Positions 846 to 18,697 of a DNA stretch of 32,000 nt are shown here, piece after piece. This DNA is from Alkanindiges illinoisensis DSM 15370 (GTDB taxonomy: Bacteria > Pseudomonadota > Gammaproteobacteria > Pseudomonadales > Moraxellaceae), in contig NZ_JHUX01000004.1 of the NCBI RefSeq assembly GCF_000619845.1, positions 120,001 to 152,000 on the forward strand, written 5' to 3'. The translations under genes were made by a program, and so were the position numbers. The notes under the pieces were generated by a model that saw nothing but the letters and a program-made list of their open reading frames with translations, was not told the origin of the DNA and made no database searches. Positions within the stretch are counted from its first letter, which is position 1. Each line of letters begins with the position of its first letter.

Positions 846-870
846 TGGTAGAGATGGCGTCAACTGAACA
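846..870 (-). repeat. Diverged island-borne copy of the ssrA 3' end
   Basis: tggtAgagatggcg (846-859) versus tggtGgagatggcg (18340-18353). Both lie exactly 41 nt from the 43-bp repeat, and the two 41-nt spacers are about two-thirds identical by hand alignment. Confidence 0.55.
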
Positions 871-919
871 ATAATCATAAGTTACTGATATTAAATTAAA
901 ATTTAATTAGTAAAACTCT

Positions 920-940
920 CAGGATACACCGCAGGATACA
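920..940 (+). promoter_or_regulatory. Pair of AGGATACA direct repeats (candidate integrase/excisionase arm-type sites), distal end
   Basis: AGGATACA at 921-928 and 933-940, starts 12 bp apart. The same motif pair with the same spacing occurs at 18196-18215. Confidence 0.4.
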
Positions 941-968
941 AAATAATTTTCGTTGCTCTACTTAATAA

Positions 969-1505: not shown

Positions 1506-1738
1506 ACTAGCCTCCTTTATTTCGCTATTGTATCATAAAAAAAATAATAACCACCAATCCGTCACTTTTAATCATATAAATATTTAAAGTTTCCTAAAAG
1601 AGTCTATTCACTCATAAGAATTTATGTGTTATTTTGAGTCCGTGAAATTAAAAGCTATGAAAACCCCTACTGAACTAGCAGTGGCAATTCCATACGCAAA
1701 TGCTTTTCACGCGTTAATGATTATCAAGAGGAAAATAT

Positions 1739-1987
1739 ATGAATACTGAATTTTCACAACTTTCCCAAAAGTATCTGATTAGTCAGAAAGATTTGGCAAG
1801 AAAGCTTGGGATGAGCGTAGATGCCCTACGCAAGCTGCAAAAAATTGATCCTGTATTTGCCCAAGCTATGATTAAAATGGGTTCAACTCGACAAGCTGCT
1901 GTTTTTTACATAGTCGCTGAAATTTTAAAGTGGATTGAGTCAAAAAAAACTCAGAACGTGTTTAATCAAGCTATTGAATGCAAATGA
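1739..1987 (+). CDS. AlpA/excisionase-like small HTH protein
   Basis: 82 aa with SD agagga. The N-terminal HTH (ISQKDLARKLGMSVDALRKL) followed by ...EILKWIESKK has the layout of AlpA/Xis-type winged-helix proteins. Confidence 0.45.
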   Translation: MNTEFSQLSQKYLISQKDLARKLGMSVDALRKLQKIDPVFAQAMIKMGSTRQAAVFYIVAEILKWIESKKTQNVFNQAIECK

Positions 1988-2138
1988 AAAAAGCTGCTCT
2001 AAAGCAGCCTTTCTCAGTGAGAACGCTGGTTGCCGCCAGCTTCCATCACAAACTGAATAATCGACTCAAAATCAATCACCAGCAGTTCATCCTAACATAA
2101 AAATTTAGGATGAGCATGCTGGTAAATATTCTAACAGC

Positions 2139-3335: not shown

Positions 3336-3356
3336 GCGGTTTTGTTATGACAAAGG

Positions 3357-3392
3357 CAACCCTTTGATGTCAAAGGGTTGTTTCGTTGTTTC
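3357..3392 (+). terminator. Putative intrinsic terminator after the DUF3631 gene
   Basis: Inverted repeat caaccctttga/tcaaagggttg followed by the T-rich tract tttcgttgtttc. Confidence 0.4.
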
Positions 3393-3517
3393 GGGTAATT
3401 TAACTAAAGCAGATCACATTCAACAAAAATTATAATTTGTGGCCGAAGCACCTAGATATGATTTAACTGGTACTTGAAATATACATAGCCCCACTATCTG
3501 TTGAGGCCTGCCCCCCC

Positions 3518-3760
3518 CTATGAATAATAAATAACTCCGTATTTAGCAGGAGGGTTTTTGGGGTCAACCCTGTAAGCGTTTACCACAAGCGGTTCAATAG
3601 CGTTAAAAAGCATTGCTACTCCACAGCACACAGGCATAGCCTGCCGTACTGTCGGAGCAGCTTCAAACGACAATGCACTATCATTGAGTTGAGGTATAAC
3701 CGTTACATGGCCATTAAGCGGTAAAAGTGACAGGTTTGATCTTTCATCATTAATACCCAC
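3518..3760 (-). CDS. Hypothetical protein (weak call)
   Basis: 80-aa ORF with a GTG start, no clear SD and no recognisable motif. Confidence 0.2.
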   Translation of the reverse strand: MGINDERSNLSLLPLNGHVTVIPQLNDSALSFEAAPTVRQAMPVCCGVAMLFNAIEPLVVNAYRVDPKNPPAKYGVIYYS

Positions 3761-3830
3761 TTAGCAGATCAACAGCAGTACCAGTAATACAAACATGGGC
3801 ATCAGGTTAAAATCAGATAAAAACGTTAAC

Positions 3831-4121
3831 TTAGGCATGATCAGCTAACACCTGTAATGCAGCCTCTACGACCTCAAGTAGACGTAGTGCTAACGGGTTA
3901 TCAGCAATCACATGGTATTCGTCTGCTTCAAGCTGATGGGTTTCCACGTAGTCTAGGACATGGTTTAACATCGCTTGGCTAATCAGGTCAGTATCATGCT
4001 CGGTTAGTAGCTGTAAGGCTGCAAAGTTCAAAGCTTCGATATAGACGTGGGTTTCATTATCTATGGTTTCGTGGGTAATGGGTAATTCATAAGTTACGAC
4101 TTCTTTAATACTGGACATCAT
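3831..4121 (-). CDS. Small, strongly acidic protein (hypothetical; DNA-mimic/anti-restriction or antitoxin-like composition)
   Basis: Start chosen at the internal ATG ATG preceded by aggaaataaattt. The 96-aa product has 18 D/E versus 2 K/R by my count. The longer 161-aa form overlaps the upstream gene and adds an unnatural basic leader. Confidence 0.5.
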   Translation of the reverse strand: MMSSIKEVVTYELPITHETIDNETHVYIEALNFAALQLLTEHDTDLISQAMLNHVLDYVETHQLEADEYHVIADNPLALRLLEVVEAALQVLADHA

Positions 4122-4254
4122 AAATTTATTTCCTTTTTTATTGATTTGCTGGTTCATGATTTTTTTAAATTCGTGTTTATAGTGGTCACTAATGTGTTGT
4201 GAGCTACTAAATTTCTTCCTCTGGAATTGGCTGCATTTATTATCAATGTTTTTA

Positions 4255-4803
4255 TCATTGGTCTTGGCAAGGTATAAATACCTGTCGATACAATCCAGTG
4301 TTTCCTGCTTGACCAAGTGGTAATAAGGATGCAGTGGCTTCGGCAGCGTTGGGAATACCTTCCTCTGGTAGATACCGCATCCGTTTTACAATTTCTCGTT
4401 CACTGTCGTTGTAGTTCACATCGACATGCTTTAAGCCTTGTAATGCAGGCAGTGCAATATTCCTGAACAGGTGATCATAGTCGGCATTCAAAAATGGAAC
4501 ATCAAGAATCAGGCAAAAGTGAATATGTACCGTCTCACAGAATTTCTGCATATAAGTCTGTTCAACTGACCAGAAGTACATCAGGCCGTTTACCTTATCC
4601 TTCAGTACACGGTTTAGACGCTGGGCGATGGATCGGATATCAAACTCATACTTGGTAAACAATACGAAATGGGCAGCTACGGGATTAAGCATGGTCTCAT
4701 TAGCTTGCAGGATGACCGCAGCAATGGTCTCAGCATTGTCATGGTCATATTGATAGCTTTTTTTGTGTTTGGAATTAATCAGGTTATAGATATTTCTATG
4801 CAT
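4255..4803 (-). CDS. YagK/YfjJ-like (inovirus Gp2-type) protein with HxH motif
   Basis: LMYFWSVEQ...VHIHFCLILD resembles the gYiWvrE...HYHvlLll pattern of YagK/YfjJ-family proteins found in P4/CP4-57-like islands. HIH is a His-hydrophobic-His motif. Confidence 0.4.
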   Translation of the reverse strand: MHRNIYNLINSKHKKSYQYDHDNAETIAAVILQANETMLNPVAAHFVLFTKYEFDIRSIAQRLNRVLKDKVNGLMYFWSVEQTYMQKFCETVHIHFCLILDVPFLNADYDHLFRNIALPALQGLKHVDVNYNDSEREIVKRMRYLPEEGIPNAAEATASLLPLGQAGNTGLYRQVFIPCQDQ

Positions 4804-5506
4804 TATAATCTCTCTTATAATAAATGGTTTGTTTTAATAGTTTATTATGTGGGTTTTATAAGTGTGAATAGCGTGATTATTAATACCCATCGGTATTAGA
4901 TAACCACAGCCAATAGTATTTCATACTGTATAATGGTTGTCAAATCAGTGGAATATCTCAGTATAGAGTCAAGGAAATAGTAAGAAATTACATAGATTAT
5001 AAAATGATTAAGAATAAAGAATAATTAATCATCAAGAAAGGATAGGTTAACTATTAAATATTAACTAGTATGAATAATCAATAAAGAGAAGATAGAGGAA
5101 TAGAAGTAGATAAAACTATTAAAAGCACTCTAAGGGGGTTAATTTAAAATATGAAAAAAGCTATAATATATAAGCGTTTTATCAAGGTTGAAGGCTTTAA
5201 TAGCATGCACGTAGAATCAGGCTTTTGGGGCTGTTGACCGTTGCTAAGTAATGCAACCTCAAAAATAGTTCTAGTGAAAGTCATATTTTAGGAATCATAA
5301 ATGAACTTTCACTAGTAATGTGATTAGCTTCAAAGCCAGTTAAAAATAAATGTCACCCAACAACTATTTAATTCACCCATCCAGAATGCGATAGCAGCCC
5401 CATAGCGAAGTTTAAAATCATAAGTGATAAGAATGTACCACCAGAATTAAAATGGCTGTAATAAGTATTTAAGGCCTTTTAGAGCGAACTAAATATTAAT
5501 CAAATA

Positions 5507-5755
5507 TTATGGCTTGTTAACTGCATCAAAATTTAAGCCATTAAAGAACAATGAAGGATTACTCTCTAAAGCGTTCAGCCAATCCAGCAACTCAATCACA
5601 TCCAAGCGGCGTTCAAGCAGCTCAGTCTTGGAAATGTAAGATTGAGGTTTAAGTAGTTTCTTCGCTAGTTCAACCTGCGTAATTTTCTTTTCATCTCTAA
5701 TCTGGATGAGCTTGGCAATTACTAAGCTATAGCGTGGATCATGGATAGTTCGCAT
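5507..5755 (-). CDS. XRE-family HTH transcriptional regulator
   Basis: KITQVELAKKLLKPQSYISKTELLERRLDV is a classic XRE HTH. ATG at 5755 is preferred; the ORF track opens at TTG 5791. Confidence 0.6.
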   Translation of the reverse strand: MRTIHDPRYSLVIAKLIQIRDEKKITQVELAKKLLKPQSYISKTELLERRLDVIELLDWLNALESNPSLFFNGLNFDAVNKP

Positions 5756-5781
5756 GACCAGCACTATCAGGGAATATGAAA

Positions 5782-5802
5782 AATATCCCAAAATAGGATA
5801 TT
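5782..5802. promoter_or_regulatory. Inverted repeat AATATCC-N7-GGATATT in the divergent XRE / djlA-like intergenic region (candidate operator)
   Basis: Perfect 7-bp arms at 5782-5788 and 5796-5802, between the two divergent starts. Confidence 0.3.
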
Positions 5803-5852
5803 ATTAAACCTATAAGTTATTATTTAAAAAATATTGCTATAAAGGGGTTTAC

Positions 5853-6665
5853 ATGGTCTGGCTCATCATTCTGTTTATTGTTGGCATCATCATTGAGATA
5901 TGCAAGCAAAACGATAACAACTCAACATCTGACAGTGTGCCAAAAATTGGTAATGGACAAGAACAGCATAATGCTGCTAACGAAGCACAGCACAACTCAT
6001 TTAAGAACCTTTATCCCTTTATTGATCTGTATACCTACTATGCCCTAGAGGGCAAGCGGTCTTGGACACCTGAAAAAATCCAGTTCATTAAAACAGTGCT
6101 TAGCCCATTAAATGATGCTGAAAAGATATTGCTTCGGGATCGGCTAAAGCATGTACCTAACGTAAGCCTGAGTATCCTGATTGATGGGGTAAAACAGGCA
6201 GTCAGCAATAATCCGGCAGCACGTCCTGAAATTACTTATGTAATAGCAAGGATGCTGGTTATTGACCAAACCCCTCACCCAAGCATTGAACGCAAGATTA
6301 ATGATTTAGGACATTCCTTTGGCTTATCTAATGATGAGATTGGCAGGATTATCAGTACAGCCATTCATGCCAGTGAAGAATCCTATCAATCTGGGGAATC
6401 ACAGCAGGAACACCAAGGCTATGAGCAACAAACCACAACGAACTCTGCCACTGAATGGGCATGTGAAATCCTAGGGCTATCACAGGCAGAGATTAGCACA
6501 GCACGTATCCAACAAGCCTACCGCCAGAAGATGCGGGAATATCACCCTGATAAGCACCAAGGCTTGCCAGAAGCCATCCAGAAGCTCCTGCATGAAAAGA
6601 CACAGGACGTCAATAAGGCTAAGGACATATTACTCAAGCTAGCCAATAACAAAATGAGTGCTTAA
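5853..6665 (+). CDS. djlA: Membrane-anchored DjlA-like J-domain co-chaperone
   Basis: N-terminal TM helix (VWLIILFIVGIIIEI), a central TerB/DjlA-N-like region, a Q-rich linker, and a C-terminal J domain with an intact HPD (AYRQKMREYHPDKHQGLPEAIQKLLHEKTQDVNKA). This closely parallels the E. coli DjlA J domain. SD aagggg. Confidence 0.75.
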   Translation: MVWLIILFIVGIIIEICKQNDNNSTSDSVPKIGNGQEQHNAANEAQHNSFKNLYPFIDLYTYYALEGKRSWTPEKIQFIKTVLSPLNDAEKILLRDRLKHVPNVSLSILIDGVKQAVSNNPAARPEITYVIARMLVIDQTPHPSIERKINDLGHSFGLSNDEIGRIISTAIHASEESYQSGESQQEHQGYEQQTTTNSATEWACEILGLSQAEISTARIQQAYRQKMREYHPDKHQGLPEAIQKLLHEKTQDVNKAKDILLKLANNKMSA

Positions 6666-6676
6666 GGAAGATTACG

Positions 6677-7114
6677 ATGCTAAGAACACTATTACTACTA
6701 CTGGTTGCTGTGGGTGGGCCAGTCGGCTTGGTCACTTATATTATGCTTCACGGTAGGATTCAAAAAGCCAAGCTAGCGCTATCCTCAGAAGATCATTACA
6801 GCAGGCTAAAGACACCTGCATCCTCGACACTTAGCTACCAAAGCCAAAGCACAAGTCGCACTTTGCAGCCAGTGCCGAGTAGTGATCATAAGCAACAGGA
6901 TACCCGATCCATTGAATGGGCTTGCCAAGTGCTAGGGCTAACAATGGAAGGACTAACGCCAGAGACGATTGAAAAAGCCTACAATCGAAAGATGGAAGCG
7001 TATCAGGCCAGCGATCAACAGAATCTACCTGAATCGATTCAGCAGCTATTGCATGAAAAGATTCAGGAGGTAAAAGAGGCTAAAAAAGTTTTATCAGAGG
7101 GTAATAAAATTTGA
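6677..7114 (+). CDS. Membrane-anchored J-like protein lacking the HPD motif (paralog of the DjlA-like C-terminus)
   Basis: N-terminal TM helix. The C-terminus IEWACQVLGL...AYNRKMEAYQASDQQNLPESIQQLLHEKIQEVKEAKKVL aligns with the upstream gene's J domain, but HPD is replaced by QAS-D. SD aaggaag. Confidence 0.65.
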   Translation: MLRTLLLLLVAVGGPVGLVTYIMLHGRIQKAKLALSSEDHYSRLKTPASSTLSYQSQSTSRTLQPVPSSDHKQQDTRSIEWACQVLGLTMEGLTPETIEKAYNRKMEAYQASDQQNLPESIQQLLHEKIQEVKEAKKVLSEGNKI

Positions 7115-7116
7115 AT

Positions 7117-9840
7117 TTAATATTCAAAAGGAATCATTCTTTTATATCTTGTCTTTAATGCATCGACCCCACCTTCCATTATTGAGCATACCAAATCCCT
7201 AACAGCTTTCTCTTGTAACGCACCACTAGCTTCAATTTGAATTAGACCTTTATTTTGTAAAGCTATTACATTTTCAGAGTCGGAGTTGACTACTATATTT
7301 GGATTATGTGTTACAAGAATAACCTGCCTTTTGGTTTTTGATTCTTTTAGCTGTTTAACAATTAATCTAGTAATTAGAGAGTTATCTAGATCATCTTCTG
7401 GTTGATCTAGAATTAATGGCTCATTACCATAATTCAATAATAAGCTCAGTATCGTTGCTGATTTTTGACCTGCCGATCCTTCAGCAATATTTCTAAAATT
7501 ATTTCCATTAGTTCTAAAATCAATTTTGATATCATCGTGTGGAAACCATCCGAGGATGCTTTCAATTACTTCAGAGGAAGAATTTATTTTCATTAGGTGA
7601 TCGAATAATCTTTTCTCAATCTTTTCTTTTATAACACTAGCTATTGGGTTTGATAATATCTCCATTTTAAATTCTGATATTATTTTATGACATTCTTCAA
7701 TGTCATAATTTTTGTTCTTAAAATCATTTTCCAAATTAAATAAAATGCCTTTTTGCTCATCGGAGTCATAAATACTACTTGAAAAATAGTCTCCTGTTTT
7801 TTGTATACATGCTCTAAAACCATTTTCATTAATTTTACCAAAAGGAATTATAGTAACTCTAATTTCATCATTGCTAGAAAAATAATTACTTATAAATTCT
7901 TTTCTACGTTTGGTTAGATTCATCCTATTTTCTATCAATTTACCATATATAGCTTTTAATTCGATTTTATTATTTATTAATTCACTCTCATATATACTAA
8001 TATTCTCCAAATTTTTATCAATAATTTCTATGCTATTCACTAATTTCTGATGACTTTGAAAGTCAATACCTACATCTTTGAGTTGATCTAAAGTTATTTT
8101 ATAATCTTCAATAGCTCTATCTATCCTCTTATAATCATCTATTTGAAGAATTTTTTCCTCAAAATCCGTAAAAAGATTACTCAGTTCCTGAGTTTTAATA
8201 ACTAAATTATTTTTAATATCAGCAACTAGATTTAAAATTGAATTAATTTCATTATTTGCATATGTTTCATCTATTTGATTAGATATTTCTGAGTAATTAT
8301 CTGTAAATTTTGTTAGTTCCAATATTTTCTCTGAAACACTATTTTTAAAATCCTTAAATTTATTTTTTTGTATTAAGGCATTTTTATAGTCTTGTGCTAT
8401 TTTTTCATTTAAGGGATTTTCAATAAGGCTTAACTTATTAATTAAGTCTTTCCTCTCACCTAATAGCTGATTTTTAAAACCTATCTCAGAAACTAAATAA
8501 TTTTTACGATTCAAACTATGTTTTAAATCCCTAATTATTTCATTTGATTCTCTATTAAGACTATTAATATCTACTATGAGTGATTGATCAATCATATTAA
8601 ATAAAAAAGAAGGATTCTTGGAAAGTTCAAATATCTGCTTTTGGCTATAAATACTGATTGGAAATCTTTGATGAATTTCCCCAAATTCTTCCTCTAAGAT
8701 ATTAAATTCATTGTCAATTTTATATATATTATGTTTTTGATTATCAGCAGACCATACAATTTTATATTTTAAATTATCTTTTTCATAAATACATGAAATA
8801 ACACTTTTTTCTAAGAACATACCAGAATCTTCACGAGATTTTGAAATCTTTTTAAATAATTCAAAGGTTCTTTTAATTTCATGTAAATCTTTAGTATCTA
8901 AAATTTCTTTATCCTTTGATAATACTATCCTTATAAATTCCACTAAAGAAGATTTACCTGCACCTCTACCACCAATTATTGAATTTAGCCAAGGACTAAT
9001 ATTTATAGTAAGTCCACTAGAGCGTCCTGCATACTTACAATCCTTAATATCTATAGATTGTATTAATAGTTTAGATTTTTCATCATTTGGATTAATGCTT
9101 GTTGTCTCCTTCCTTTTAATAGAAGTATTTCCATCTATTAATGCAAGTTTTAGACCCTCAATAGTTGGAGCACCCATTTTGACCCAAGTAAATGCCCTAC
9201 CAACCTCTCTGGGCATATGAGCATCACTACCTATTACATTTGGCAAGTTGCTTATATGTGAATATTTATTTTTAAAATCATTATTCCATAATGAAAATTT
9301 TTCTGGAAAAACGACTTCTACAGCTAAAACCGCTTGTATCAATTGTTTGTATGAACTCATTGATTGCATCAGAAAAGCTCCTGCTGCAAGATCAACATGA
9401 GCTGGAATAGCAATCCCTCCAGCTTGATGAATTGCATGTACAACTTCAATTGCACTTTTAGTGCAGGGTATATCTATTTGATTTGGTTTAGCTCCTACCG
9501 CTCCAATTAAACTAGAAATTTCTTCTTGGGAGCAGCTTGGATCAAATATTGCAAGTATATGAACATTCGAGTTTGCTGTTATTTCCATACCAGGAAATAT
9601 AGAAATATTTTTACCTTCATTTTTTAATAATTCAGCCTCTTTTTTTAGGCTATCTATCCATGTTGCAGTGTTATGGTCTGTTACAGCTACGCACTCTATC
9701 CCTTCATCTATAAATTTCATTAGCCAATCACGAGGGTTAATCGTTTTTGGATCAAATTGAGCTTTAGCATAATCACTTGATGCAGGTGTATGTGTATGAA
9801 AATCAAATTTCCACCATCTTGCTCCAGTAGTATTAATCAT
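7117..9840 (-). CDS. PHP-domain + SMC/ABC-like coiled-coil ATPase (single-gene anti-phage candidate, Ppl-like architecture)
   Basis: N-terminal PHP motifs (WWKFDFHTHTPASSDY, VAVTDHNT, IPAHV, GSDAHMP). Walker A GGRGAGKSS, a long N/K/I/E-rich helical region, a signature-like GSAGQKSA, Walker B LILDQPEDDLD and VILVTHNPN. SD aagggga. Confidence 0.8.
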   Translation of the reverse strand: MINTTGARWWKFDFHTHTPASSDYAKAQFDPKTINPRDWLMKFIDEGIECVAVTDHNTATWIDSLKKEAELLKNEGKNISIFPGMEITANSNVHILAIFDPSCSQEEISSLIGAVGAKPNQIDIPCTKSAIEVVHAIHQAGGIAIPAHVDLAAGAFLMQSMSSYKQLIQAVLAVEVVFPEKFSLWNNDFKNKYSHISNLPNVIGSDAHMPREVGRAFTWVKMGAPTIEGLKLALIDGNTSIKRKETTSINPNDEKSKLLIQSIDIKDCKYAGRSSGLTINISPWLNSIIGGRGAGKSSLVEFIRIVLSKDKEILDTKDLHEIKRTFELFKKISKSREDSGMFLEKSVISCIYEKDNLKYKIVWSADNQKHNIYKIDNEFNILEEEFGEIHQRFPISIYSQKQIFELSKNPSFLFNMIDQSLIVDINSLNRESNEIIRDLKHSLNRKNYLVSEIGFKNQLLGERKDLINKLSLIENPLNEKIAQDYKNALIQKNKFKDFKNSVSEKILELTKFTDNYSEISNQIDETYANNEINSILNLVADIKNNLVIKTQELSNLFTDFEEKILQIDDYKRIDRAIEDYKITLDQLKDVGIDFQSHQKLVNSIEIIDKNLENISIYESELINNKIELKAIYGKLIENRMNLTKRRKEFISNYFSSNDEIRVTIIPFGKINENGFRACIQKTGDYFSSSIYDSDEQKGILFNLENDFKNKNYDIEECHKIISEFKMEILSNPIASVIKEKIEKRLFDHLMKINSSSEVIESILGWFPHDDIKIDFRTNGNNFRNIAEGSAGQKSATILSLLLNYGNEPLILDQPEDDLDNSLITRLIVKQLKESKTKRQVILVTHNPNIVVNSDSENVIALQNKGLIQIEASGALQEKAVRDLVCSIMEGGVDALKTRYKRMIPFEY

Positions 9841-9919
9841 GTTTTCCCCTTAATTAATTTATTATGAATATATTCATATAGTGTAAAGAAGGTTTCTCAA
9901 ATTTTATAGGTTTTGAGAA

Positions 9920-10222
9920 TCAAAGTTTTATAACTTCTGGCTTATGCTTGTTTAGAGATTGGTTTTCATTGTCAGCTAACTTATCCCTATAATCAGCCCA
10001 CCGTCCACACGTTGCACTAGGATAGTACTATGTTATAGAAACTAGCCACACCGCCTTTACATGCGCTAGGGCGGCTTCTAAATATTTCTCATTAAGTGTT
10101 TTACTGGCAACTTTCCTAAAGCTATGTGGTATTTATTGGCCTTTATACCCTAAGCGTATTAAGATATCAGAGACAAAAGGGCTTTTAGTATTGTACTTCT
10201 GGCTCAGGAACAGATAAGGCGA
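9920..10222 (-). pseudogene. Tyrosine-integrase 3' remnant (paralog of the int at 16893-18119), with in-frame stops
   Basis: Nucleotide similarity to 16893-17220. Translation gives PYLF.S....SP..SD.LIRLGYKGQ*IPHSFRKVASKTL..., parallel to SPYLFPSRS...RRLGYEGRQSPHGFRHIASTTL. It is truncated at 10222. Confidence 0.75.
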
Positions 10223-10600
10223 ATGATAGGTGAGCCTGTTGGCTTAGTGGCATACATCACGATTCACACTAAGACTGAACAAGCCAAACTATCACGCTCA
10301 TCAGAAGATCATTATAGCAGGCTAAAGTTACCTGCATTATCGATGCTTAGCTATCAAAACCAAAATACAAGCTTCAGTGTGCAATTAGTTCCAAGTAATG
10401 AACATACTCATGCCTATCTATTGAATAGGTTTGTGAAGTCTTAGGGCTGCCAATGGATTAATTAACCAAAGAGACGATTAAAAAAGCCTCTAATCGCAAG
10501 ATAGAAGCGCATCAGGCCAGCGATCACCAAAATCCATTCGAGAGTTATTGGAGCAAAAGATTTAGGAAGTTAATGAGGCGAAGAACATTTTCACTTTCTC
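10223..10600 (+). pseudogene. Decayed second copy of the HPD-less J-like gene
   Basis: Colinear with 6710-7100 at the nucleotide level. It lacks the first ~11 codons and carries several stops and frameshifts (e.g. TAG at 10442). It still encodes ...AHQASDHQN..., i.e. it is also HPD-less. Confidence 0.8.
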
Positions 10601-10764
10601 AAGAAACCACTATGTAATGCTCAAGTAAAATTAGTCACCTTACTACCAAGGCAGAGCACACAAAATGTTTACTATAGTCAACAATATGCTATCATTTAGG
10701 TATATCACTTATTGAATTAGTCGACTCTAGTGTAGAAGATAATAGTCAATGACTCACAGGAAAT

Positions 10765-12033
10765 ATGCAAACTAAATTATTCCCCAAAGCATCTTTTGAA
10801 ATAGAAGCCAAGCACACTACACACTCGGGTGGTAAAGGTGAATATTTACATGATTGGTATTCATATTTAGAAGGTTTTTCATCATCATTTGTATATGAAA
10901 TTTTAAAAACTTATGCTCCTGATGCTGAAATCGTTCTGGAACCTTTTGCTGGAGTTGGAACGACTCCAGTGAATAGCTCGATTTTAGGTTGCACATCTTA
11001 TTATTGTGAAATTAACCCTGTTTTAAGAAAAGTTGTCGCAATTAAGCAAAAAATTCTTAACCTTTCAGATAGTAAAAAATCAGAATTTTTATTAGATATC
11101 AATGAGCTAGGGAATAATTTAAATCATTATTTACAGAATGTAAGACCATCAGAAGAACTAAGGAAAAAATATTACGATTGTTTTGATAAGAGTATTTTCT
11201 TTTCTCAAGATACTTTTGAGCAAGTACTAAAATTTAGATCCTTAGTGGATCAGATTGCATTAAAAGATGAACTTTTAGCTGAAGCTTTAGAGGTAGCCAT
11301 ACTATCTTGTTTAGTAACTTGTTCCTTATTAAAAAGATCAGGAGATGTACGTTTTAAAACTCCAAAAGAATTATCTAAAGGTGTACCTTTATTACTACCT
11401 TCAGTATTAAAGCAACTAAAGCTGATGATGGATGATTGTAGAAATTGTCCTCAAGCATTAGCTCCAATAAACTTATTGGCAAATAATTCAAAAGAAGTTT
11501 TAGATATCGAAAGTATCCAAGCTGATATTGTTATCACAAGCCCTCCTTACTTAAATGGTACTAATTATTTTCGAAATACAAAGCTCGAACTTTGGTTTAT
11601 TGGAGAGCTTTTAAACAATAAGAGTCTTCGTATTTTTAGAGATCAGGTTGTGACATCTGGAATAAATGATGTCACTAAAGATAAAGGGAAAGATATTTTA
11701 CCTTTGGTATCTGATTTATATGCTGAATTATTAGAAAAAGCTTATGACGCTAGAATTGCTAAGATGATGTCAGCATATTTTTATGAAATGAAAATAGTGC
11801 TAGAAGGATTGAAACACCATACGAAACTTAATGGTGTTATATGCATTGATATTGGAGATAGTGTCTATGCAAATGTGTATATTCCTACACACATAATTTT
11901 GACGGAAATCGCGAAAGATTTAGGTTTTTCATTATATGAAGAAATTTTATTAAGGAAAAGATATTCCAATGGTGGAGCTGAGTTAGGTCAGTATTTATTG
12001 GTATTAAAGAAGATGGATAGTGAAGAAAAATGA
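10765..12033 (+). CDS. DNA amino-methyltransferase 1 (SPPY catalytic motif; N4-C or N6-A)
   Basis: AdoMet motif I EPFAGVGTT sits near the N-terminus and catalytic motif IV ITSPPYLNG ~190 aa later (an alpha-type motif order). The stop overlaps the next gene (ATGA). Confidence 0.8.
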   Translation: MQTKLFPKASFEIEAKHTTHSGGKGEYLHDWYSYLEGFSSSFVYEILKTYAPDAEIVLEPFAGVGTTPVNSSILGCTSYYCEINPVLRKVVAIKQKILNLSDSKKSEFLLDINELGNNLNHYLQNVRPSEELRKKYYDCFDKSIFFSQDTFEQVLKFRSLVDQIALKDELLAEALEVAILSCLVTCSLLKRSGDVRFKTPKELSKGVPLLLPSVLKQLKLMMDDCRNCPQALAPINLLANNSKEVLDIESIQADIVITSPPYLNGTNYFRNTKLELWFIGELLNNKSLRIFRDQVVTSGINDVTKDKGKDILPLVSDLYAELLEKAYDARIAKMMSAYFYEMKIVLEGLKHHTKLNGVICIDIGDSVYANVYIPTHIILTEIAKDLGFSLYEEILLRKRYSNGGAELGQYLLVLKKMDSEEK

Positions 12034-13181
12034 AATCTGCCAAACTCGCTGAAATTTTAGAAAAATGGGATAACTTTAAAACAACGTTTCCTCATATGGA
12101 GGAACCATTTTCAAAAAGAAATTGGGGATCTGATTTACACTCGGTTTGTTCTTATCAAGGAAAAATGAAACCAGCTTTGGCTTATCATTTAATTGATACC
12201 TTCTCGGTAAAAGGAGATATCGTCTTAGATCCATTTAGCGGATCAGGAACTATTCCATTCGAAGCCGCTATAAATGGTCGTTTTGCCTTTGGGTTAGATA
12301 TTGGTGTATTAGCTACTTCTCTCTCGAATGCGAAGTTAAAAAAGCATAATAAAGAAGAAGTACTTAAAATAATTGACATGTTAGATGATTTTATTCGTAA
12401 TAATACACCGCAAGATAAAAGCATATCGGACTCAATAGGAGTCGCTTTTAATAAAACTATTCCAGAATATTTTCATGAGGATACTTTTAAAGAAATTCTC
12501 TTAGCGAGGGAATTTTTTCTTAAACACAATGACCCAGAATCAGAGAATTGGTCATTAGTTTTCGCATGTATGCTACACATTTTACATGGTAATAGGCCTT
12601 ATGCTTTAAGTCGTAATAGTCATCCTATTACCCCTTATGCACCTACGGGTGAATTTATATATAAGAATGTAATTGAAAAGTTGACAAATAAAGTTAACAA
12701 ATCAATAGAGGCTCAAGAGTTATTAAATTTAACTTCATCTAAATGCTTTTTATCAGATATCCTTAGTAAATGGCCTGAAGAAATTCAAAAAGTCGATTCA
12801 ATTATTACATCTCCCCCTTTTTTCGATAGTACAAAATTCTATATGACGAACTGGATGAGGTATTGGTTTTGTGGATGGAATAAGAAAGATTTTCAAGAAA
12901 ATCCTAAATCTTTTGTAGAAGTGATGCAGAAAAAAAATTTTGATGTTTATGAGTTTATATTTAAAGAAAGTTATGAACGTTTAGTTGCTAATGGTATTGC
13001 AGTCTTTCACTTAGGTCATAGTGATAAATGTGATATGGCTAAATCATTAATTCCTTTTGCTGAAAGATACTTCGAGATTCTTGATGTTTTTACAGAGTCT
13101 GTTGAGCATTGTGAAAAACACGGGATCAAAGATAAAGGTAGCGTTAAAGGACACCAATATTTAGTCTTAATGAAAAAGTAA
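12030..13181 (+). CDS. DNA amino-methyltransferase 2 (SPPF catalytic motif; N4-C or N6-A)
   Basis: Motif I DPFSGSGTI and motif IV ITSPPFFDS, with the same layout as methyltransferase 1. Translationally coupled by ATGA at 12030-12033. Confidence 0.8.
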   Translation: MKSAKLAEILEKWDNFKTTFPHMEEPFSKRNWGSDLHSVCSYQGKMKPALAYHLIDTFSVKGDIVLDPFSGSGTIPFEAAINGRFAFGLDIGVLATSLSNAKLKKHNKEEVLKIIDMLDDFIRNNTPQDKSISDSIGVAFNKTIPEYFHEDTFKEILLAREFFLKHNDPESENWSLVFACMLHILHGNRPYALSRNSHPITPYAPTGEFIYKNVIEKLTNKVNKSIEAQELLNLTSSKCFLSDILSKWPEEIQKVDSIITSPPFFDSTKFYMTNWMRYWFCGWNKKDFQENPKSFVEVMQKKNFDVYEFIFKESYERLVANGIAVFHLGHSDKCDMAKSLIPFAERYFEILDVFTESVEHCEKHGIKDKGSVKGHQYLVLMKK

Positions 13182-13194
13182 ATTGATTTTTACA

Positions 13195-13227
13195 AAAGGC
13201 TATAATTTTTTGAAAATTATAGCCTTT
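13195..13227. terminator. Bidirectional hairpin terminator between the convergent methyltransferase and endonuclease genes
   Basis: Perfect 15-bp arms aaaggctataatttt / aaaattatagccttt with a 3-nt loop, flanked by A/T runs. Confidence 0.6.
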
Positions 13228-13236
13228 CTTAAAAAA

Positions 13237-14643
13237 TTAGCCTAGATTTCTGTAAAGTTTGAGAAGATCTATTTTTTTTCCAACATCTGTTTTGTTTAGT
13301 GTTTTCTGTAAAGCTTTTAATAATAAATCTGAAGTCAGCTTTCCATCGCGTACTTTCTGTAGTTCTGATTTTTGGCAAAAAGAATTAAATAACCAATCTA
13401 AATTTTCAATTAGACAATTTACCGCATTCAAGTTAGGACTTGGATTTTGAAGTTCATCAAGTGAAAGTCCTGTTATTCTTGATAATTCAGAAAGTTTTTC
13501 TTGTGAATAAAATTCAGAAGGCGCTCTGTCCCTTTTTTGTGAATTGCAGGAACCACAAAGACATGTTGCTGTCTCATCTAATGGCCATAAGAGAGCTAAA
13601 GGACGGGTATGATCTAAATGCATTTCTTTCGGAGATTTGAGGTCAATTGAACAATTAAAACATTTTTTGCCAAATTTTAACCATATGTCATCAGTTAACT
13701 CACGACCACCTGATTTCTCTCTATATATAAGTTGCGGGCTTTTGCCAAAAATCTCAGTTAGGAGTAATTCAAAAGCTCGTCTTCTTGCCCCATCCTCCTT
13801 CATTTGAGCAGCAGTACGCTGTGGATTGTGTGCAGCATTAACCTCATATTTTTTACAGAATCTACATTCCAACTGATAACCGTACTCTAATTGCATTATT
13901 TGATTTGTTTCAACGTTTCTTAGCTTCCCAAAACCAGCATGGGAACAAGGCCGCCTATGAACGGCAACACAATGATTTGAAAAACTTAAGTGATGTCTCT
14001 CGTTATTAATATTTATTGGAAGGAAGCGAGCACAACGATTGCAAGACTTTAAGTAGATATGTGCATTTGAAGTTTCAGTCGAGTCAAAGCTTAATTCGAT
14101 GCTGACATCACCTTCTACAGAATAGAAATTTGATTCTGGTGCAAATTGGTACATATTTTTCAATAGTACAGGCTTTTCCGATTTTGCCCATTCCAAGTGT
14201 TTATGTTTGACAATACCACAGCCAACTTCGTAAAGTGCTAGATATGAATCTTCAAGGGCTGTAAATCTAACTTGTGTTTGCTCAACATTCGTATAAGTAC
14301 TAGAAGTTCCCATTGAACCAAACTTTGACCAGTTATTATCTTCTGGGTCAGTATGAAGCTCCTTTACAAATCCCCCTTTAAAAACTTCGACCCTTATTTG
14401 GTCATTACATGAATACCATCCCCCAAATGCAACTATATCTCCAAGGTTATGGTCTGGAATTTGGAATGTTATAGTAATATTTTGCCCTTTAGGAATTAGT
14501 ATACTTTCAATATCTTCTATTTTAAGCTCGCCACCAGTTGAATCAGGATGGCTTTTAAATCCACTAGTTCTTGTAGTTGTTCTTCTACGGCCTGCAAATT
14601 CAGTTTTCCCCGGAAGTTTATTGCCAAAATTTACTTTTTCCAT
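13237..14643 (-). CDS. HNH (beta-beta-alpha-Me) endonuclease with four CxxC pairs, putative restriction endonuclease subunit 1
   Basis: HLDHTRPLALLWPLDETATCLCGSCNSQKRDR plus CNRC, CRFC, CFNC and CGSC. The ATG directly abuts the C-gene stop (TAAATG), the classic C-R operon arrangement. Confidence 0.7.
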   Translation of the reverse strand: MEKVNFGNKLPGKTEFAGRRRTTTRTSGFKSHPDSTGGELKIEDIESILIPKGQNITITFQIPDHNLGDIVAFGGWYSCNDQIRVEVFKGGFVKELHTDPEDNNWSKFGSMGTSSTYTNVEQTQVRFTALEDSYLALYEVGCGIVKHKHLEWAKSEKPVLLKNMYQFAPESNFYSVEGDVSIELSFDSTETSNAHIYLKSCNRCARFLPININNERHHLSFSNHCVAVHRRPCSHAGFGKLRNVETNQIMQLEYGYQLECRFCKKYEVNAAHNPQRTAAQMKEDGARRRAFELLLTEIFGKSPQLIYREKSGGRELTDDIWLKFGKKCFNCSIDLKSPKEMHLDHTRPLALLWPLDETATCLCGSCNSQKRDRAPSEFYSQEKLSELSRITGLSLDELQNPSPNLNAVNCLIENLDWLFNSFCQKSELQKVRDGKLTSDLLLKALQKTLNKTDVGKKIDLLKLYRNLG

Positions 14644-14859
14644 TTACATTCCCTCAAAAAGCTGAGATAAATTTTTGTCTAATGCCTTAGCAATGGAATT
14701 CAAAGCCCTCAAAGAGATATTTCTCTTTCCTGTTTCAACGCCACTTACGTAAGTTCGATCTAGACATGCTTTATCAGCTAAAGCCTCTTGAGATAGCCCA
14801 TAATTTTTTCTGAGAATTTTAAGGTGGTTACCAAAAGCTCTAAGGAGTTCTTCTTCCAT
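14644..14859 (-). CDS. Controller (C) protein of a restriction-modification system, XRE-type HTH
   Basis: The 71-aa sequence LSQEALADKACLDRTYVSGVETGKRNISLRAL strongly resembles C.PvuII/C.AhdI-type controller proteins. It lies immediately upstream of the endonuclease. Confidence 0.8.
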   Translation of the reverse strand: MEEELLRAFGNHLKILRKNYGLSQEALADKACLDRTYVSGVETGKRNISLRALNSIAKALDKNLSQLFEGM

Positions 14860-14903
14860 GGCAGAAGCTGTCCAATTTTTTACTTAATCTTATGATAGTT
14901 TTT

Positions 14904-14935
14904 GTAGACTATGAGCCCACGTACTATGAGTCACA
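14904..14935 (-). promoter_or_regulatory. C-box operator pair upstream of the C gene
   Basis: tgtaGACTATGAGCccacgTACTATGAGTCaca holds two ACTATGAG(T/C) boxes (14907-14916 and 14922-14932), resembling GACT-N3-AGTC C-boxes. Confidence 0.55.
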
Positions 14936-15045
14936 TACATGTCAAATAAATATTTATTTTATTGAATAAGAATAGATACATATCTTCAAATTTTTTGCAT
15001 CATCTGGAAGTAGATAAATTGAATCTTCTCTCCACTTTCATCAAT

Positions 15046-16395
15046 TTATTTTTTTACATCTTGATAAAGTTGCAATAAGTTATAATTCTTTCCATATTCA
15101 GTTTCATCTAATGTCCTTTGTAAGGAAGTAAGAAATATTTCAGCAGTAATTTTTCCATCTCTATCTTTTTGTAAAGTATTGCTAAAACAGAAATCTGATA
15201 TTAGCCACTCTATATTATCTAATATCAACTTTACTGCTTCTAGGTTTACTTTAGCATGGGTTAAATCTGAAATAGACAATCCAATAATAGATGATAATTC
15301 TTCTATTTCTTCTGGTAGATAATATTCAGATGGTAACTTATTACTTTTTTGAGAATTACAAATTTCACATAAGCATGTGGCTGTTTCATCTAACGGCCAT
15401 AATAATGATAAAGGTCTTGTATGATCTAAATGCATATCTTTGGGATTATTTAGTTCAATATCGCACTTAAAACATCTTTTATTAAATTTAATCCAAGTAT
15501 CTGTAGCTAATCCACCATACCGATGTTTATTTTTATAACTTAACAGATGGCTTTTTTTATATAATTCAGTCAATAAGGACTCCATAGCACGTCTTCTTGC
15601 TGAATCTTCTCTTAACTGATCAATCGTACGTTGCTTATTTAGTGGTATATTTACAAATAGCTTTTTACAAATCCTGCATTCTAATTGATATCCATATTTT
15701 AGAGACAGAGCATCGTCACATTCTTCATGTTTTAAAGTGTTAAATCGTTTATGATTAGAAAAACTTAAGTGACTTTTTTCATTATTAATATTTATTGGTA
15801 AAAAACGCGCACAACGATTACAAGATTTTAAATACAAATCTATTTTTTTTTCTAACATATTGGCTGCTTGATTATAGACAATAATTTTCCCTTTATTTTG
15901 GTAAAAATTCCCTTCTGGAGCATATGTATGAATATTATCTAATTGTTTTTCAACATATGCGTCATTTCGAACTCTTTCAATTTCCTCATGATAAACTGTA
16001 CCACAATCAATATTATGAAAAGCTATATTAGTATCTTCTAATGCAGTAAAAGTTATTGAGGTGGTTGGAACATTATTTGTTGTATCAGAAACTCCTATAG
16101 AACCAAATTTAGACCAATTTAGCGGTTGATAAATTATCAATATAGTGTCTACAAACCCTCCTTTTTGTATATGTACTTTTATATTTTTATCACAAAAAAA
16201 CCATCCTCCAAATGCTACAAGATCTCCAATATTATGAGGTGGTATTAAAAACTCAATTTTAATGGACTGATTTTTATTAAGAAAAAAACTATCTTTTTTT
16301 TCTATTTTATAATTTCGCCCAGTACTGTCTGGATGGGTGCTATAACCAGATGTTTTTGTGGGCTGTCTTCTCTTAGGTAATAAAATATCATTCAT
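15046..16395 (-). CDS. Paralogous HNH endonuclease, putative restriction endonuclease subunit 2
   Basis: 449 aa, colinear with the 468-aa protein over its full length. It shares SG..SHPDSTG, GD.VAFGGW, NWSKFGS, YLKSCNRCARFLPININNE, YGYQLECR.CKK and HLDHTRPLSLLWPLDETATCLCEICNSQK. Confidence 0.7.
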   Translation of the reverse strand: MNDILLPKRRQPTKTSGYSTHPDSTGRNYKIEKKDSFFLNKNQSIKIEFLIPPHNIGDLVAFGGWFFCDKNIKVHIQKGGFVDTILIIYQPLNWSKFGSIGVSDTTNNVPTTSITFTALEDTNIAFHNIDCGTVYHEEIERVRNDAYVEKQLDNIHTYAPEGNFYQNKGKIIVYNQAANMLEKKIDLYLKSCNRCARFLPININNEKSHLSFSNHKRFNTLKHEECDDALSLKYGYQLECRICKKLFVNIPLNKQRTIDQLREDSARRRAMESLLTELYKKSHLLSYKNKHRYGGLATDTWIKFNKRCFKCDIELNNPKDMHLDHTRPLSLLWPLDETATCLCEICNSQKSNKLPSEYYLPEEIEELSSIIGLSISDLTHAKVNLEAVKLILDNIEWLISDFCFSNTLQKDRDGKITAEIFLTSLQRTLDETEYGKNYNLLQLYQDVKK

Positions 16396-16608
16396 TACAT
16401 AGCCTTAAATAGATCGAATAAATTTTTTCTAGGACTTTAGCAATGCAATTAGGAGCTTTTAAAGAGATATTTCTTTTTCCTGCTTCAACGCCACTCACGT
16501 AAGCTCGACCTAGACATGCTTTATTAATAAAGCATCTTGAGATAGGCCATAATCTTTTCCGAGAGTTTTAAAATGGCTTCTAAAGTTCTTTAGGAGTTCT
16601 TTTTCCAT
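16396..16608 (-). pseudogene. Frameshifted copy of the C (controller) gene
   Basis: Nucleotide-colinear with 14644-14859. A 1-nt deletion (gctttagctgataaagca becomes gctttattaataaagca) gives MEKELLKNFRSHFKTLGKDYGLSQDALLIKHV*. Confidence 0.75.
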
Positions 16609-16892
16609 TGCAGAAGCTATTCATTTGTGTAACTATTGTTATAGTAATTTATGTGGCTTATACATCCACGGACTATGAGTAACAAAATGGTTTATCGGAA
16701 AGTCAGTAGTTATTCCATACAATTTCTAGAAAGCTTACAAGAAAATTACATGTAACGGTATTTTCTGATTTTAAAAGAATTTTATTATCAACTGCTTAAT
16801 TTTAAGTTTTCAAGGACACTACCTTCCCTTTAACATTCTGGAATTAAAACTCATAGATTAGCTATAAGTTTTAATTTGATTAAAAATAAGCT

Positions 16893-18119
16893 TTAAGCTT
16901 TTTTAAAAACAATAACTTCATCATTAGCTAAACTATCCAGATAATCAGCCCACCATTGCATCATAGGCTTACGATCATTCAGGTAAGCTGCTTTATTGTA
17001 TACTCCTTCTACCCCACCAGTGACATGGGCTAAAGCACTTTCTACATGATCACGGTTAAAACCTTTTTCCCTTAATGTCGTGCTGGCAATGTGCCTAAAG
17101 CCATGTGGCGACTGTCTCCCTTCATAGCCTAATCGTCTAAGTGCCATAATAAAGACTGTATCTGATTTTGGACTATTGTTACTACTACGGCTAGGGAATA
17201 AATAAGGACTATCACTACTATACGCCTTAAGCTCTTTTAATAGCTCTACTGCTTGTGTCGGTAAAGGAATGATATGTTCACGCCGCTTTTTCATGCGCTC
17301 TGCGGGAATTGTCCATTCGGCTGCTTGAAGATTAACCTCTTTCCATAAAGCTGTTCTAAGCTCACTGGGACGGCAAAACAGCATAGCTAATAGCTGTAAC
17401 CCTATACTTACATCACGAGTTGGATAGTTTCTAATTGCTCTTAATAATGCTGGCAATTCATTTGCAGAAACATGCTTCATATTTTCTGATTTAGCTGTTT
17501 CCAAGAACCTGTGTAAGCCTTCTAATGGGTTAAACTCAATCCGGCCAGTCACTTTAGCAAGATCATAAATTTCCTGGCACAAAGCACGCATGCGATTAGA
17601 CTGCTCAATGATCCCCTTCTCTCGCTGGATACTCTTAAACAGATTCATCCATTCAATAGGTTTAATTTCCTTATATGCACGCTTACCCATAACAGGAAAA
17701 ATATGTTTTTCTAAAGCGCCCTTATTGCGCTTCATTGTACCTTCAGTCCATTTATTGACTTTTCCATCCAGCCACTCTACCGCTAGCTTTTCGAAGGTAC
17801 TGTTAGTTGCTTCTAATTCTTGCTGCTTTTTTTCTTGTTTAGTAATAATAGGATCTTCACCCTTCGATAGGGCTTTATTTAATTCTTGCGCTGTTTTACG
17901 TGCAAGTTCGCCAGATACCGCTGGATATGTTCCTATACCAACCCAAGACCATTTACCATCAGCTTTCTTATAGCGTAGTTGCCACGACTTATTGCCATTA
18001 GGTTTGATACGAAAATATAAGCCATTACCGTCTAACTCTCTATACTCCTTATCTTCCGGCTCTAATGTCTTAAGAGTTGTATCAGTCATTGGCCGTTTCT
18101 TAATATCATCGCGCTTCAT
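16893..18119 (-). CDS. int: P4-type tyrosine integrase
   Basis: N-terminal arm-binding-type domain (GLYFRIKPNGNKSWQLRYK). Catalytic region HGFRHIASTT ... VEGVYNKAAY. Strong SD aaggag. Adjacent to and co-oriented with ssrA. Confidence 0.9.
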   Translation of the reverse strand: MKRDDIKKRPMTDTTLKTLEPEDKEYRELDGNGLYFRIKPNGNKSWQLRYKKADGKWSWVGIGTYPAVSGELARKTAQELNKALSKGEDPIITKQEKKQQELEATNSTFEKLAVEWLDGKVNKWTEGTMKRNKGALEKHIFPVMGKRAYKEIKPIEWMNLFKSIQREKGIIEQSNRMRALCQEIYDLAKVTGRIEFNPLEGLHRFLETAKSENMKHVSANELPALLRAIRNYPTRDVSIGLQLLAMLFCRPSELRTALWKEVNLQAAEWTIPAERMKKRREHIIPLPTQAVELLKELKAYSSDSPYLFPSRSSNNSPKSDTVFIMALRRLGYEGRQSPHGFRHIASTTLREKGFNRDHVESALAHVTGGVEGVYNKAAYLNDRKPMMQWWADYLDSLANDEVIVFKKA

Positions 18120-18167
18120 TGTATAACTCCTTAATCCTATTAACGAAAACAGTAGACATACAATTTA

Positions 18168-18215
18168 TGTATCCCGCCAGTTCAATAAATATTAAAGGAT
18201 ACAAGATAGGATACA
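18168..18215. promoter_or_regulatory. AGGATACA repeat cluster (candidate arm-type sites), ssrA-proximal end
   Basis: AGGATACA at 18196-18203 and 18208-18215 (12-bp register, same as 921/933), plus an inverted 7/8 copy tgtatcc at 18168-18174. Confidence 0.4.
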
Positions 18216-18255
18216 CAATGGGCTGGCCTATACAGCCTCAAAGCTCCCCATAAAC

Positions 18256-18298
18256 AGGCATAAAAAAACCCTTAACCATTGCTAGTTAAGGGTTTTAG
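18256..18298. repeat. Proximal 43-bp direct repeat; contains the ssrA intrinsic terminator
   Basis: Identical to 762-804. On the minus strand it reads as the hairpin aacccttaac/gttaagggtt followed by a T7 run, 41 nt after the tmRNA CCA end. Confidence 0.9.
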
Positions 18299-18339
18299 TC
18301 TGATACATCATCATGTTGCAGTGTATCAATTTAGGTATA

Positions 18340-18697
18340 TGGTGGAGATGGCGGGATTTGAACCCGCGTCCGCCAGCACTACGCCCACGAATCTACATGC
18401 TTAGTTATCGTCTATTGCTTTAACCGCTAACAGCCCAACGAACAGGACGTTAGAAGCGATTCCCTAAGTTTGACACCATGTCACGGGACATTACACGGTG
18501 CGGATCTGTGTGCGTGCGCTTCGGTCGGCCTCACCAACCACAGATATTTGGTTCGGCGGACAAGCAGCCCTTAGGCTGCTAGAGCGTAAGTTTCGTCGTT
18601 TGCGACTATAAAAATGCAAGATTGATTTACGAGAGATAATGCGCTCTCGGCATGCATCATTGAGTTTCATCACCAGCGTCGAAGCCAGAACATCCCC
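18340..18697 (-). ncRNA. ssrA: tmRNA (transfer-messenger RNA)
   Basis: The minus strand starts GGGGATGTTCTGGCTTCGACG and ends GGTTCAAATCCCGCCATCTCCACCA. The tag ORF GCAAACGACGAAACTTACGCTCTAGCAGCCTAA encodes ANDETYALAA (18603-18571). Confidence 0.92.

Follow-up and report, generated by a model that had tools for sequence, protein, structure and literature searches.

A scar of integrase and J-like gene relics between two anti-phage cargos points to a composite island at the ssrA gene of Alkanindiges illinoisensis

How does a small genomic island come to hold, between two intact cargos, the decayed end of a second integrase joined to a decayed copy of one of its own genes? The question is raised by a locus beside ssrA, the transfer-messenger RNA (tmRNA) gene, of Alkanindiges illinoisensis DSM 15370, which we analysed in a window of 32,000 nucleotides (nt), the whole stretch from position 120,001 to 152,000 of contig NZ_JHUX01000004.1; coordinates are those of the window unless a relative's locus label precedes them. 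An original prediction from the sequence had read the locus as two related ssrA islands that integrated in tandem and then lost the junction between them, each having carried different cargo in one slot between a J-like gene and the integrase. Our analysis supports the reading that the stretch 860-18255 is one integrative island at the ssrA 3′ end built from two islands of the same family. This ssrA island family is rare and previously undescribed, in a Moraxellaceae-like host.

The order of genes towards the target is the J-like gene (6677..7114, plus strand), which forms the left flank of the cargo slot; cargo 2, a 907-amino-acid (aa) Ppl/TrlF-type ATPase with PHP and SMC/ABC domains (7117..9840, minus strand); the integrase relic (9920..10222, minus strand); a J-like pseudogene (10223..10591, plus strand); cargo 1, a restriction-modification (R-M) cassette (10764..16684); the intact P4-type tyrosine integrase, which forms the right flank (16893..18119, minus strand); and ssrA, the integration target (18340..18697, minus strand). 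This is the order originally described. When the intact integrase was compared with the window by tblastn, a second match ran from 10222 down to 9965 (residues 304-401, 40% identity, E=1e-10). The match contains several indels and two in-frame stops, and the frame continues to a stop at 9920. With 105 of 408 codons, the relic covers the 3′-terminal ~100 codons of another P4-type integrase; a decayed integrase end had been correctly recognised here, though it is the last quarter and not the last third of the gene. Within the genome it matches the island's own integrase better than any of the seven others, and that integrase also came first when 297 genomes of the family were searched in six frames, none of which offered a closer parent. 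Global nucleotide alignment with the 3′ end of the intact gene gave 71% identity, a soft figure as it stands without a shuffled control.

The J-like pair was recovered by the self-comparison of the window that had been proposed as a check: in blastn, 6713-7092 aligns to 10229-10591 at 71.6% identity over 380 nt (E=2e-53), and a MAFFT alignment of the pseudogene with the resident J-like gene gives 74.6%. The pseudogene begins at about codon 12, is frameshifted, and contains deletions of 7 nt and 10 nt as well as stops. As predicted, the integrase relic abuts a J-like copy that lacks its codons 1-11, the junction lying within ~4 nt of 10222/10223; any microhomology at this point is blurred by decay. 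That the junction is a chimeric join made during assembly is highly improbable: the relics are ~72-75% identical to the intact copies, too diverged to mislead an assembler, the many independent lesions in both of them indicate long decay in place, and an analogous scar in a relative, described below, was assembled identically in a second sample.

Whether one island or two contributed these relics can be read from the allele to which the pseudogene belongs. In a maximum-likelihood tree rooted on the C-terminus of J270, the J-domain gene that precedes the J-like gene, the pseudogene falls inside the P0006-P0009 allele clade, a lineage known from metagenomic islands (support 95/95), and the approximately unbiased (AU) test rejects the best tree constrained to pair it with the resident J-like gene as sisters (p=0.021). 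Its nucleotide identity is 78.5% to the allele of L091, a metagenomic relative, against 74.6% to the resident gene. By these comparisons, the pseudogene derives from a second island of another allele lineage, and because it lies in a different allele clade, we conclude that two island copies contributed. The duplicated backbone markers are colinear, and the extra J-like copy comes from a different lineage, which is the pattern that defines a composite island.

Purely local events, either an in-situ duplicate of the J-like gene beside unrelated integrase debris or a conserved cassette that moves together with one cargo, could be argued from the short distance between the J-like copies, only 3 kb, and from the other paralogues in the island (J270 and the J-like gene, the endonucleases RE1 and RE2, and two C genes). 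Such an origin is nonetheless very unlikely, and we rejected both of its forms, given the allele clade of the pseudogene together with the AU result, and given the L106 scar, which differs in breakpoints and sequence. Cassettes homologous to the R-M locus in Acinetobacter end at window positions 10764 and 16684 and carry neither relic, and the locus of the nearest Ppl homologue has no called integrase or DnaJ-family gene. A conserved cassette unrelated to island ends had been named at the outset as the finding that would count against fused islands; the differing L106 breakpoints and the relic-free Acinetobacter R-M locus speak against one.

Most of the relatives available are short metagenomic contigs from few studies, and one of these, L106 (12.6 kb), contains a second scar. 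At the start of the contig, the 3′ end of J270 precedes an intact J-like gene (87% nucleotide identity to that of the window); unknown genes follow, and then a PDC-M48 module, an MBL protein with an E1/E2/JAB fusion, and a 951-aa HSDR_N/NACHT-like protein. At L106:10795-10978, the final 41 codons of an integrase survive as a relic (10795-10917, minus strand; 73% amino acid and 84-89% nucleotide identity to the island's integrase family), which meets the terminal ~80 nt of a plus-strand J270 copy at a CATG microhomology; a resolvase and a PycTM-like gene come after the scar. The layout is that of the window, namely J-like gene (plus), cargo, integrase relic (minus), J fragment (plus) and cargo, with different breakpoints and sequences, from which the L106 scar is judged to be independent of the scar in the window. 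Across this scar, contig L107 from a second metagenome assembly shows 100% identity to L106. In L106, the J270 fragment runs to its natural stop codon with cargo directly after it, and therefore the parent that contributed it had no J-like gene.

Tandem integration followed by a deletion of ~7 kb is a reasonably probable route to the arrangement in the window. Each parent would have consisted of an ssrA-side integrase, a cargo slot, a J module (J270 with or without the J-like gene), a backbone and a far-end attachment (att) site, and each would have carried its own AT-rich anti-phage cargo, in one parent a C-controlled R-M locus of two methylases and two HNH endonucleases, in the other the Ppl/TrlF PHP-ATPase. 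Placed head-to-tail at ssrA, the two would then have undergone an illegitimate deletion that removed the proximal backbone from J-like codon 11 onward (5.8 kb), the middle att site and codons 1-303 of the distal integrase (909 nt), leaving a 670-bp scar between two intact cargos along with one integrase, one excisionase-like gene and one att pair. The order and orientation of the relics are those predicted for a head-to-tail pair with an internal deletion. To be stable, a fusion would have to shed almost the whole duplicated backbone, as a longer direct repeat would recombine and delete one of the cargos, and both known scars presumably keep only short pieces because longer direct repeats would be unstable. 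What we infer from this arrangement is that there was a tandem intermediate, how large the deletion was, and that the composite still moves as one unit.

Exactly the same scar and gene order would result if a linear piece of a second island, running from mid-integrase through Ppl and the J module into the backbone, had entered a cell whose island already held integrase, R-M locus and J module. Under such a one-step patch, homologous recombination in the shared backbone would fix one end of the piece and an illegitimate join at J-like codon 11 the other, with no tandem intermediate and no separate deletion. The 4-nt microhomology at the L106 junction suits this route, and both scars lie at most ~1 kb from the most conserved shared segment, which runs from the helix-turn-helix (HTH) repressor-like gene HTH94 through J270 to the J-like gene (83-87% nucleotide identity) and is the likely place for an anchor. 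Moraxellaceae such as Acinetobacter are naturally transformable, and de Vries and Wackernagel reportedly described homology-facilitated illegitimate recombination in Acinetobacter in 2002. We consider the patch possible but somewhat doubtful.

A single unfused island of the family at the same site, L096/L097, bears on both routes. Its host is near-conspecific (GlpK 99% amino acid identity, flanks 90-95% nucleotide identity), and the island, ~8 kb long, consists of ssrA, an integrase (92%), small open reading frames (ORFs), a DUF3631 gene (87%), the two HTH genes HTH82 and HTH178, and att, with no J genes, Ppl or R-M locus. The far-end backbone proteins of the window are 87-93% identical to those of L096 (91-96% at the nucleotide level over most of the block), and the L096 homologues of the 161-aa and 182-aa ORFs are diverged (66-68% identity). 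Judging from these sequences, the family has conserved ends and a mosaic middle in which the J module is optional. Single-island relatives with only one of the two cargos had also been anticipated; L096 supplies the single island, whereas none with one cargo was found in these sparse data, in which the R-M cassette occurs in Acinetobacter outside ssrA islands.

Several observations weigh against tandem integration. Relative to L096, both ends of the window's island (integrase 91-93%, far-end backbone 91-96% nucleotide identity) are as similar as the host flanks, and the interior falls to 63-77%, which a patch into a resident island explains at least as simply. The drops in identity at ~3250 and ~16920 are abrupt, as expected if a resident island had its interior replaced. 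The break at ~3250 could, however, stem from L096's own history, and ~90% identity is typical among all sampled integrases of the family, so that the apparent orthology of the ends is weak evidence for a patch. An intact tandem pair of the family was found in no relative, nor was a parent island with Ppl only, the nearest Ppl homologue being 48% identical and in an unrelated locus. L096 has no J genes, so the left flank of the slot is not fixed in the family; no contig spans the whole slot from the J-like gene through the intact integrase; and the relic is only 40-49% identical to any integrase, which makes its target specificity unreadable.

A further contig, L100, provides a structure of the kind that tandem integration would leave. 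At L100:2597-3044, a Lamassu module (LmuB and an MC3-domain protein) stops 212 nt before a 12-nt ssrA-core att copy that has the family's integrase-side arm and is followed by a 92.6%-identical integrase, the Lamassu element standing in place of ssrA. This is as expected at an inter-island junction and suggests that real head-to-tail junctions exist in the population, which speaks against the patch; the attP of an excised circle is an equally good reading, and to that extent L100 helps tandem integration less. Of the original claim of two ssrA islands in tandem with a lost junction, the two parents are upheld by the pseudogene clade and by L106; as to the route between them, the tandem step remains the reading that we lean towards and the one-step patch a less probable one. 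By either route, both parents had the integrase, cargo and J-module layout.

The left flank of the slot deserves closer description. J270 (5853..6665, plus strand), a membrane J-domain protein of the DjlA-like type, has the HPD motif (Pfam DnaJ E=7e-9; NCBIfam DjlA E=2e-15, under the model cut-off), and is 86-88% identical in L091, L093 and L094. The J-like protein, with a transmembrane helix and an HPD-less J-like domain, is its paralogue. Among 5.8 billion proteins, J-like homologues number 9, with 61-78% identity in alignment (64-81% by BLASTP); all of them lack HPD, have Q-A/N-x in its place and retain the N-terminal transmembrane helix. The family is under purifying selection, with a ratio of non-synonymous to synonymous substitution rates (dN/dS) of 0.20-0.44. 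Among the ~58-59 related genomes searched, the only match was 38% identical and belonged to a longer J-domain protein of one congener in a different context, and neither a scan of reference genomes with the single protein nor one of metagenome contigs with the alignment gave anything usable. With both J270 and the J-like gene missing from L096, and the J-like gene missing from one L106 parent, the J genes are optional, and the left flank is therefore better termed a J module.

The J-like gene may itself have descended from a J270 fusion scar that was later domesticated. A fusion that deleted one cargo and the integrase, up to the middle of the next J270, would have produced J270 followed by a 5′-truncated J270 copy, as in the present arrangement of J270 and the J-like gene; the domestication is argued from the dN/dS of 0.2-0.44 and from the position of the gene right after J270. 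By extension, scars of this type could be regarded as 'growth rings' of slots that grow mainly by fusion of whole islands and near-complete loss of the duplicate backbone, and not by cassette insertion. We consider this generalisation, and the scar origin of the J-like gene with it, unlikely; if it were true, multi-system defence islands could be dated and dissected by their internal scars.

What lies beyond the conserved flanks of the slot differs in every relative recovered. On the J side, HTH94, J270 and the J-like gene are common to L088/L106, L091 and L093 (83-87% nucleotide identity), and homology ends at window positions 7074-7093, 20-40 nt short of the J-like stop codon; in L104 and L105, J270 and the J-like gene are likewise followed by unrelated genes. 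Beyond the J-like gene the window has Ppl, L106 has 320-aa and 248-aa unknowns and then PDC-M48, L091 has a 316-aa unknown, a resolvase, a ThsB-like TIR protein and Nmad2, and L104 has a C5 methylase, with unknown partial ORFs running to the contig end in L093 (at least 146 aa) and L105 (at least 172 aa). These six J-side neighbours are mutually unrelated.

On the other side, the intact integrase is 92-94% identical in metagenomic relatives (96% over a partial match) and 64-68% in Acinetobacter/Moraxellaceae relatives, those that were checked adjoining ssrA. In five relatives with integrases 92-93% identical by tblastn, homology is lost at ~16920, 27 nt inside the gene, with the exception of L099, where it is lost at 16860. 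Across five relatives' contigs there are four different downstream neighbourhoods: the R-M cassette of the window has its counterpart in small ORFs and an HTH gene in L096/L097, an unknown (167 aa) with Phd/ParE in L099, and Mokosh MkoA in L102, and the L100 contig ends at this point.

The defence content of the slot includes Ppl, Type II R-M, PDC-M48, E1-E2/JAB, the HSDR_N/NACHT-like protein, ThsB-like TIR, PycTM, MkoA and the C5 methylase. Sharp breaks of homology at conserved flanks, differing content and enrichment in anti-phage systems mark the slot as an integrase-adjacent hotspot. The original view of a P4-like cargo hotspot between the J-like gene and the integrase thus holds, since the content differs beyond both flanks in every relative, and the uniform gene content that had been named as counting against it did not appear. 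The expectation of further unknown cargo is borne out by unmatched genes in L106, L091, L093, L105 and L099. Slot genes with no Pfam or PADLOC match lie at L106:584-2331, L091:859-1809, L093:2264-2704, L105:1256-1774 and L099:7616-8119, and these are candidate new anti-phage genes, sitting where sibling islands hold known defence systems.

A catalogue anchored on the integrase was also attempted in GTDB genomes, but the closest integrases (54-68%, in Acinetobacter and Pseudomonas, next to ssrA wherever this was checked) belong to islands of other layouts with no J genes, which made slot comparison impossible. Two further features of the slot are recorded here. A 221-aa serine resolvase is 94% identical between L091:1854-2519 and L106:11015-11680, in different slot positions and with different neighbours (ThsB-like TIR and Nmad2 in L091, PycTM in L106); this could mark it as a semi-conserved gene of the slot or as a component of a mobile cassette. 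At L099:444-7287, the integrase lacks its N-terminal codons, and upstream of it are Mu-like transposition genes, including a Mu-transposase C-terminal domain/rve gene and an AAA_22 gene with a faint TniB match.

Turning to the cargos themselves, the 907-aa ATPase is predicted to be a single-gene anti-phage protein of the Ppl/TrlF type. It scores 546 bits against the NCBIfam TrlF family, above the cut-off of 350, and 573 bits against the NCBIfam Ppl equivalog, below the cut-off of 1000, with E=8e-134 against the PADLOC Ppl model. Ppl is said to have been introduced as a single-gene defence by Gao et al. in 2020. The window protein resembles the Ppl/TrlF group in its full-length model match, with a predicted N-terminal PHP phosphoesterase and an SMC/ABC-type ATPase, and differs from Ppl in falling under the equivalog cut-off and in being at most 48% identical to any recorded protein. 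The nearest homologue on record, at that 48% identity, lies in an unrelated chromosomal defence locus.

The R-M cassette comprises two methyltransferases (10765-12033 and 12030-13181, plus strand; Pfam/PADLOC MTase_II), the HNH-type endonuclease RE1 (13237-14643, minus strand), a C protein (14644-14859, minus strand; HTH_3 in Pfam/PADLOC), the paralogous endonuclease RE2 (15046-16395, minus strand; 49% identity to RE1) and a second, frameshifted C gene (~16424-16608, minus strand). The entire cassette recurs with the same ends in Acinetobacter baretiae (window 10764-16684; L127:7989-13866; 84.7% nucleotide identity), and A. rudis has a one-endonuclease form, C-RE1-M2-M1 (window 10764-14959; L125:9311-13514; 89%). 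Neither of these sits at ssrA. As far as these matches show, the R-M locus is a discrete cassette. The window and A. baretiae both seem to have a frameshift in the second C gene around codon 27, which may be a lesion common to the two or a meaningful shift.

The boundaries of the island are set by a direct repeat, 762-859 at the far end and 18256-18353 beside ssrA (98 nt, 81.6% identity, with an exact block of 43 nt inside), which consists of the ssrA terminator, a spacer and a diverged ssrA 3′ end. The pair brackets ~17.4 kb (860-18255). The far copy marks the distal boundary, with the same junction in L096; the self-comparison of the window revealed no third att copy between 860 and 18255. 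ARAGORN finds ssrA with the tag peptide ANDETYALAA, and its 3′ end is 220 nt from the intact integrase. Host genes flank the island, a GBBH-like (DUF971) gene to the left and glpK to the right. GC content is ~49% in the host, 40-45% in the island backbone, and drops to 24-30% in the Ppl trough and 30-34% in the R-M trough, in agreement with the original description of the cargo as much more AT-rich.

The spacer between the ssrA 3′ end and the terminator occurs in two alleles, of which the window has one at the proximal and the other at the far att copy, and L096 has a single allele at both. We considered the alleles as markers of the two parents and rejected the idea, as they do not assign ends to parents. 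The crossover point may lie in the ssrA 3′ end or in the terminator. Outside the window, C4:331696-331917 of the same genome holds an integrase fragment (43% identity to residues 325-397 of the island integrase) that may be a further island relic.

From the far end inward, the backbone consists of the HTH protein HTH178 (969-1505, minus strand), among the far-end matches to Pfam HTH_3; HTH82, a small AlpA/excisionase-like HTH protein (1739-1987, plus strand) with a weak match to the PHROG 66 excisionase; a DUF3631 protein (2139-3335, plus strand; Pfam E=4e-47); and a middle section (3518..5791, minus strand) with ORFs of 80 aa, 161 aa and 182 aa and HTH94 (5507-5791, minus strand; 92% identity to L093). 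The intact integrase matches Pfam Arm-DNA-bind_3, Phage_int_M and Phage_integrase.

Several features are shared with islands already known. Tandem island arrays at transfer-RNA genes (tDNAs) have been catalogued with Islander/TIGER, and the tmRNA gene is the most enriched integration target (PMC4383910). The displaced 3′ target fragment in direct orientation and the adjoining tyrosine integrase, of P4 type and beside a tmRNA gene, place the element among tDNA-integrated islands in the Islander sense. In an Islander array, by contrast, every member has an integrase and a tDNA fragment of its own, whereas the second integrase of this element is reduced to a 100-codon relic with stops and there is no middle fragment. 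The element is a fused composite island and not an array. Extra integrases downstream of ssrA in Pseudomonas (L025, L027) were considered as tandem arrays and rejected, as no ssrA-core repeats lie between them.

Composite islands that arose by tandem accretion and deletion are known from the ICESt1/ICESt3-type elements of Streptococcus thermophilus (Pavlovic et al. 2004, in the account given in PMC3146451), and tandem ssrA islands from Dehalococcoides (PMC3146451), which share their target with the island described here. As in the accretion and deletion elements, related elements would have been stacked head-to-tail at one att site and reduced by an internal deletion, with a composite that is possibly mobile under one integrase. 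Unlike in those examples, no middle att site is left here, and the two parts are joined at points within an integrase gene and within a backbone gene; the islands, small at 8-17 kb, have no conjugation or mobilisation genes and carry anti-phage cargo, and this type of scar recurs in a second lineage.

The closest parallel for the slot is the defence hotspot between psu and int of P4-like satellites (Rousset et al. 2022, PMC9122126), in whose defence loci core-gene pseudogenes are common and are read as remnants of recombination (PMC13586616). In both, a variable slot adjoins a P4-type integrase, faces a conserved gene on the opposite side and holds differing known or candidate anti-phage systems. 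Scans of the backbone proteins with Pfam, NCBIfam and PHROGs recognised only the integrase, HTH regulators, the weak excisionase-like match, DUF3631 and DnaJ, and none of the P4 hallmarks (psu, delta, sid, alpha primase-helicase, ash/cos). The island also differs in that its non-integrase flank is a DjlA-like J-domain module, in its Moraxellaceae-like host and ssrA site, and in that the relics in the window are those of an integrase and of the flank gene itself, which points to fusion of whole islands over cassette swapping. On this reading, the locus would be a clean, dated case of a small mobile island that gained two defence systems by merging with a sibling and losing the duplicate backbone, an outcome that would have arisen independently in a second lineage (L106). 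Accretion with deletion and integrase-adjacent hotspots are already known in themselves, and the value of this locus lies in a worked case of the two together and in a small source of candidate anti-phage genes.

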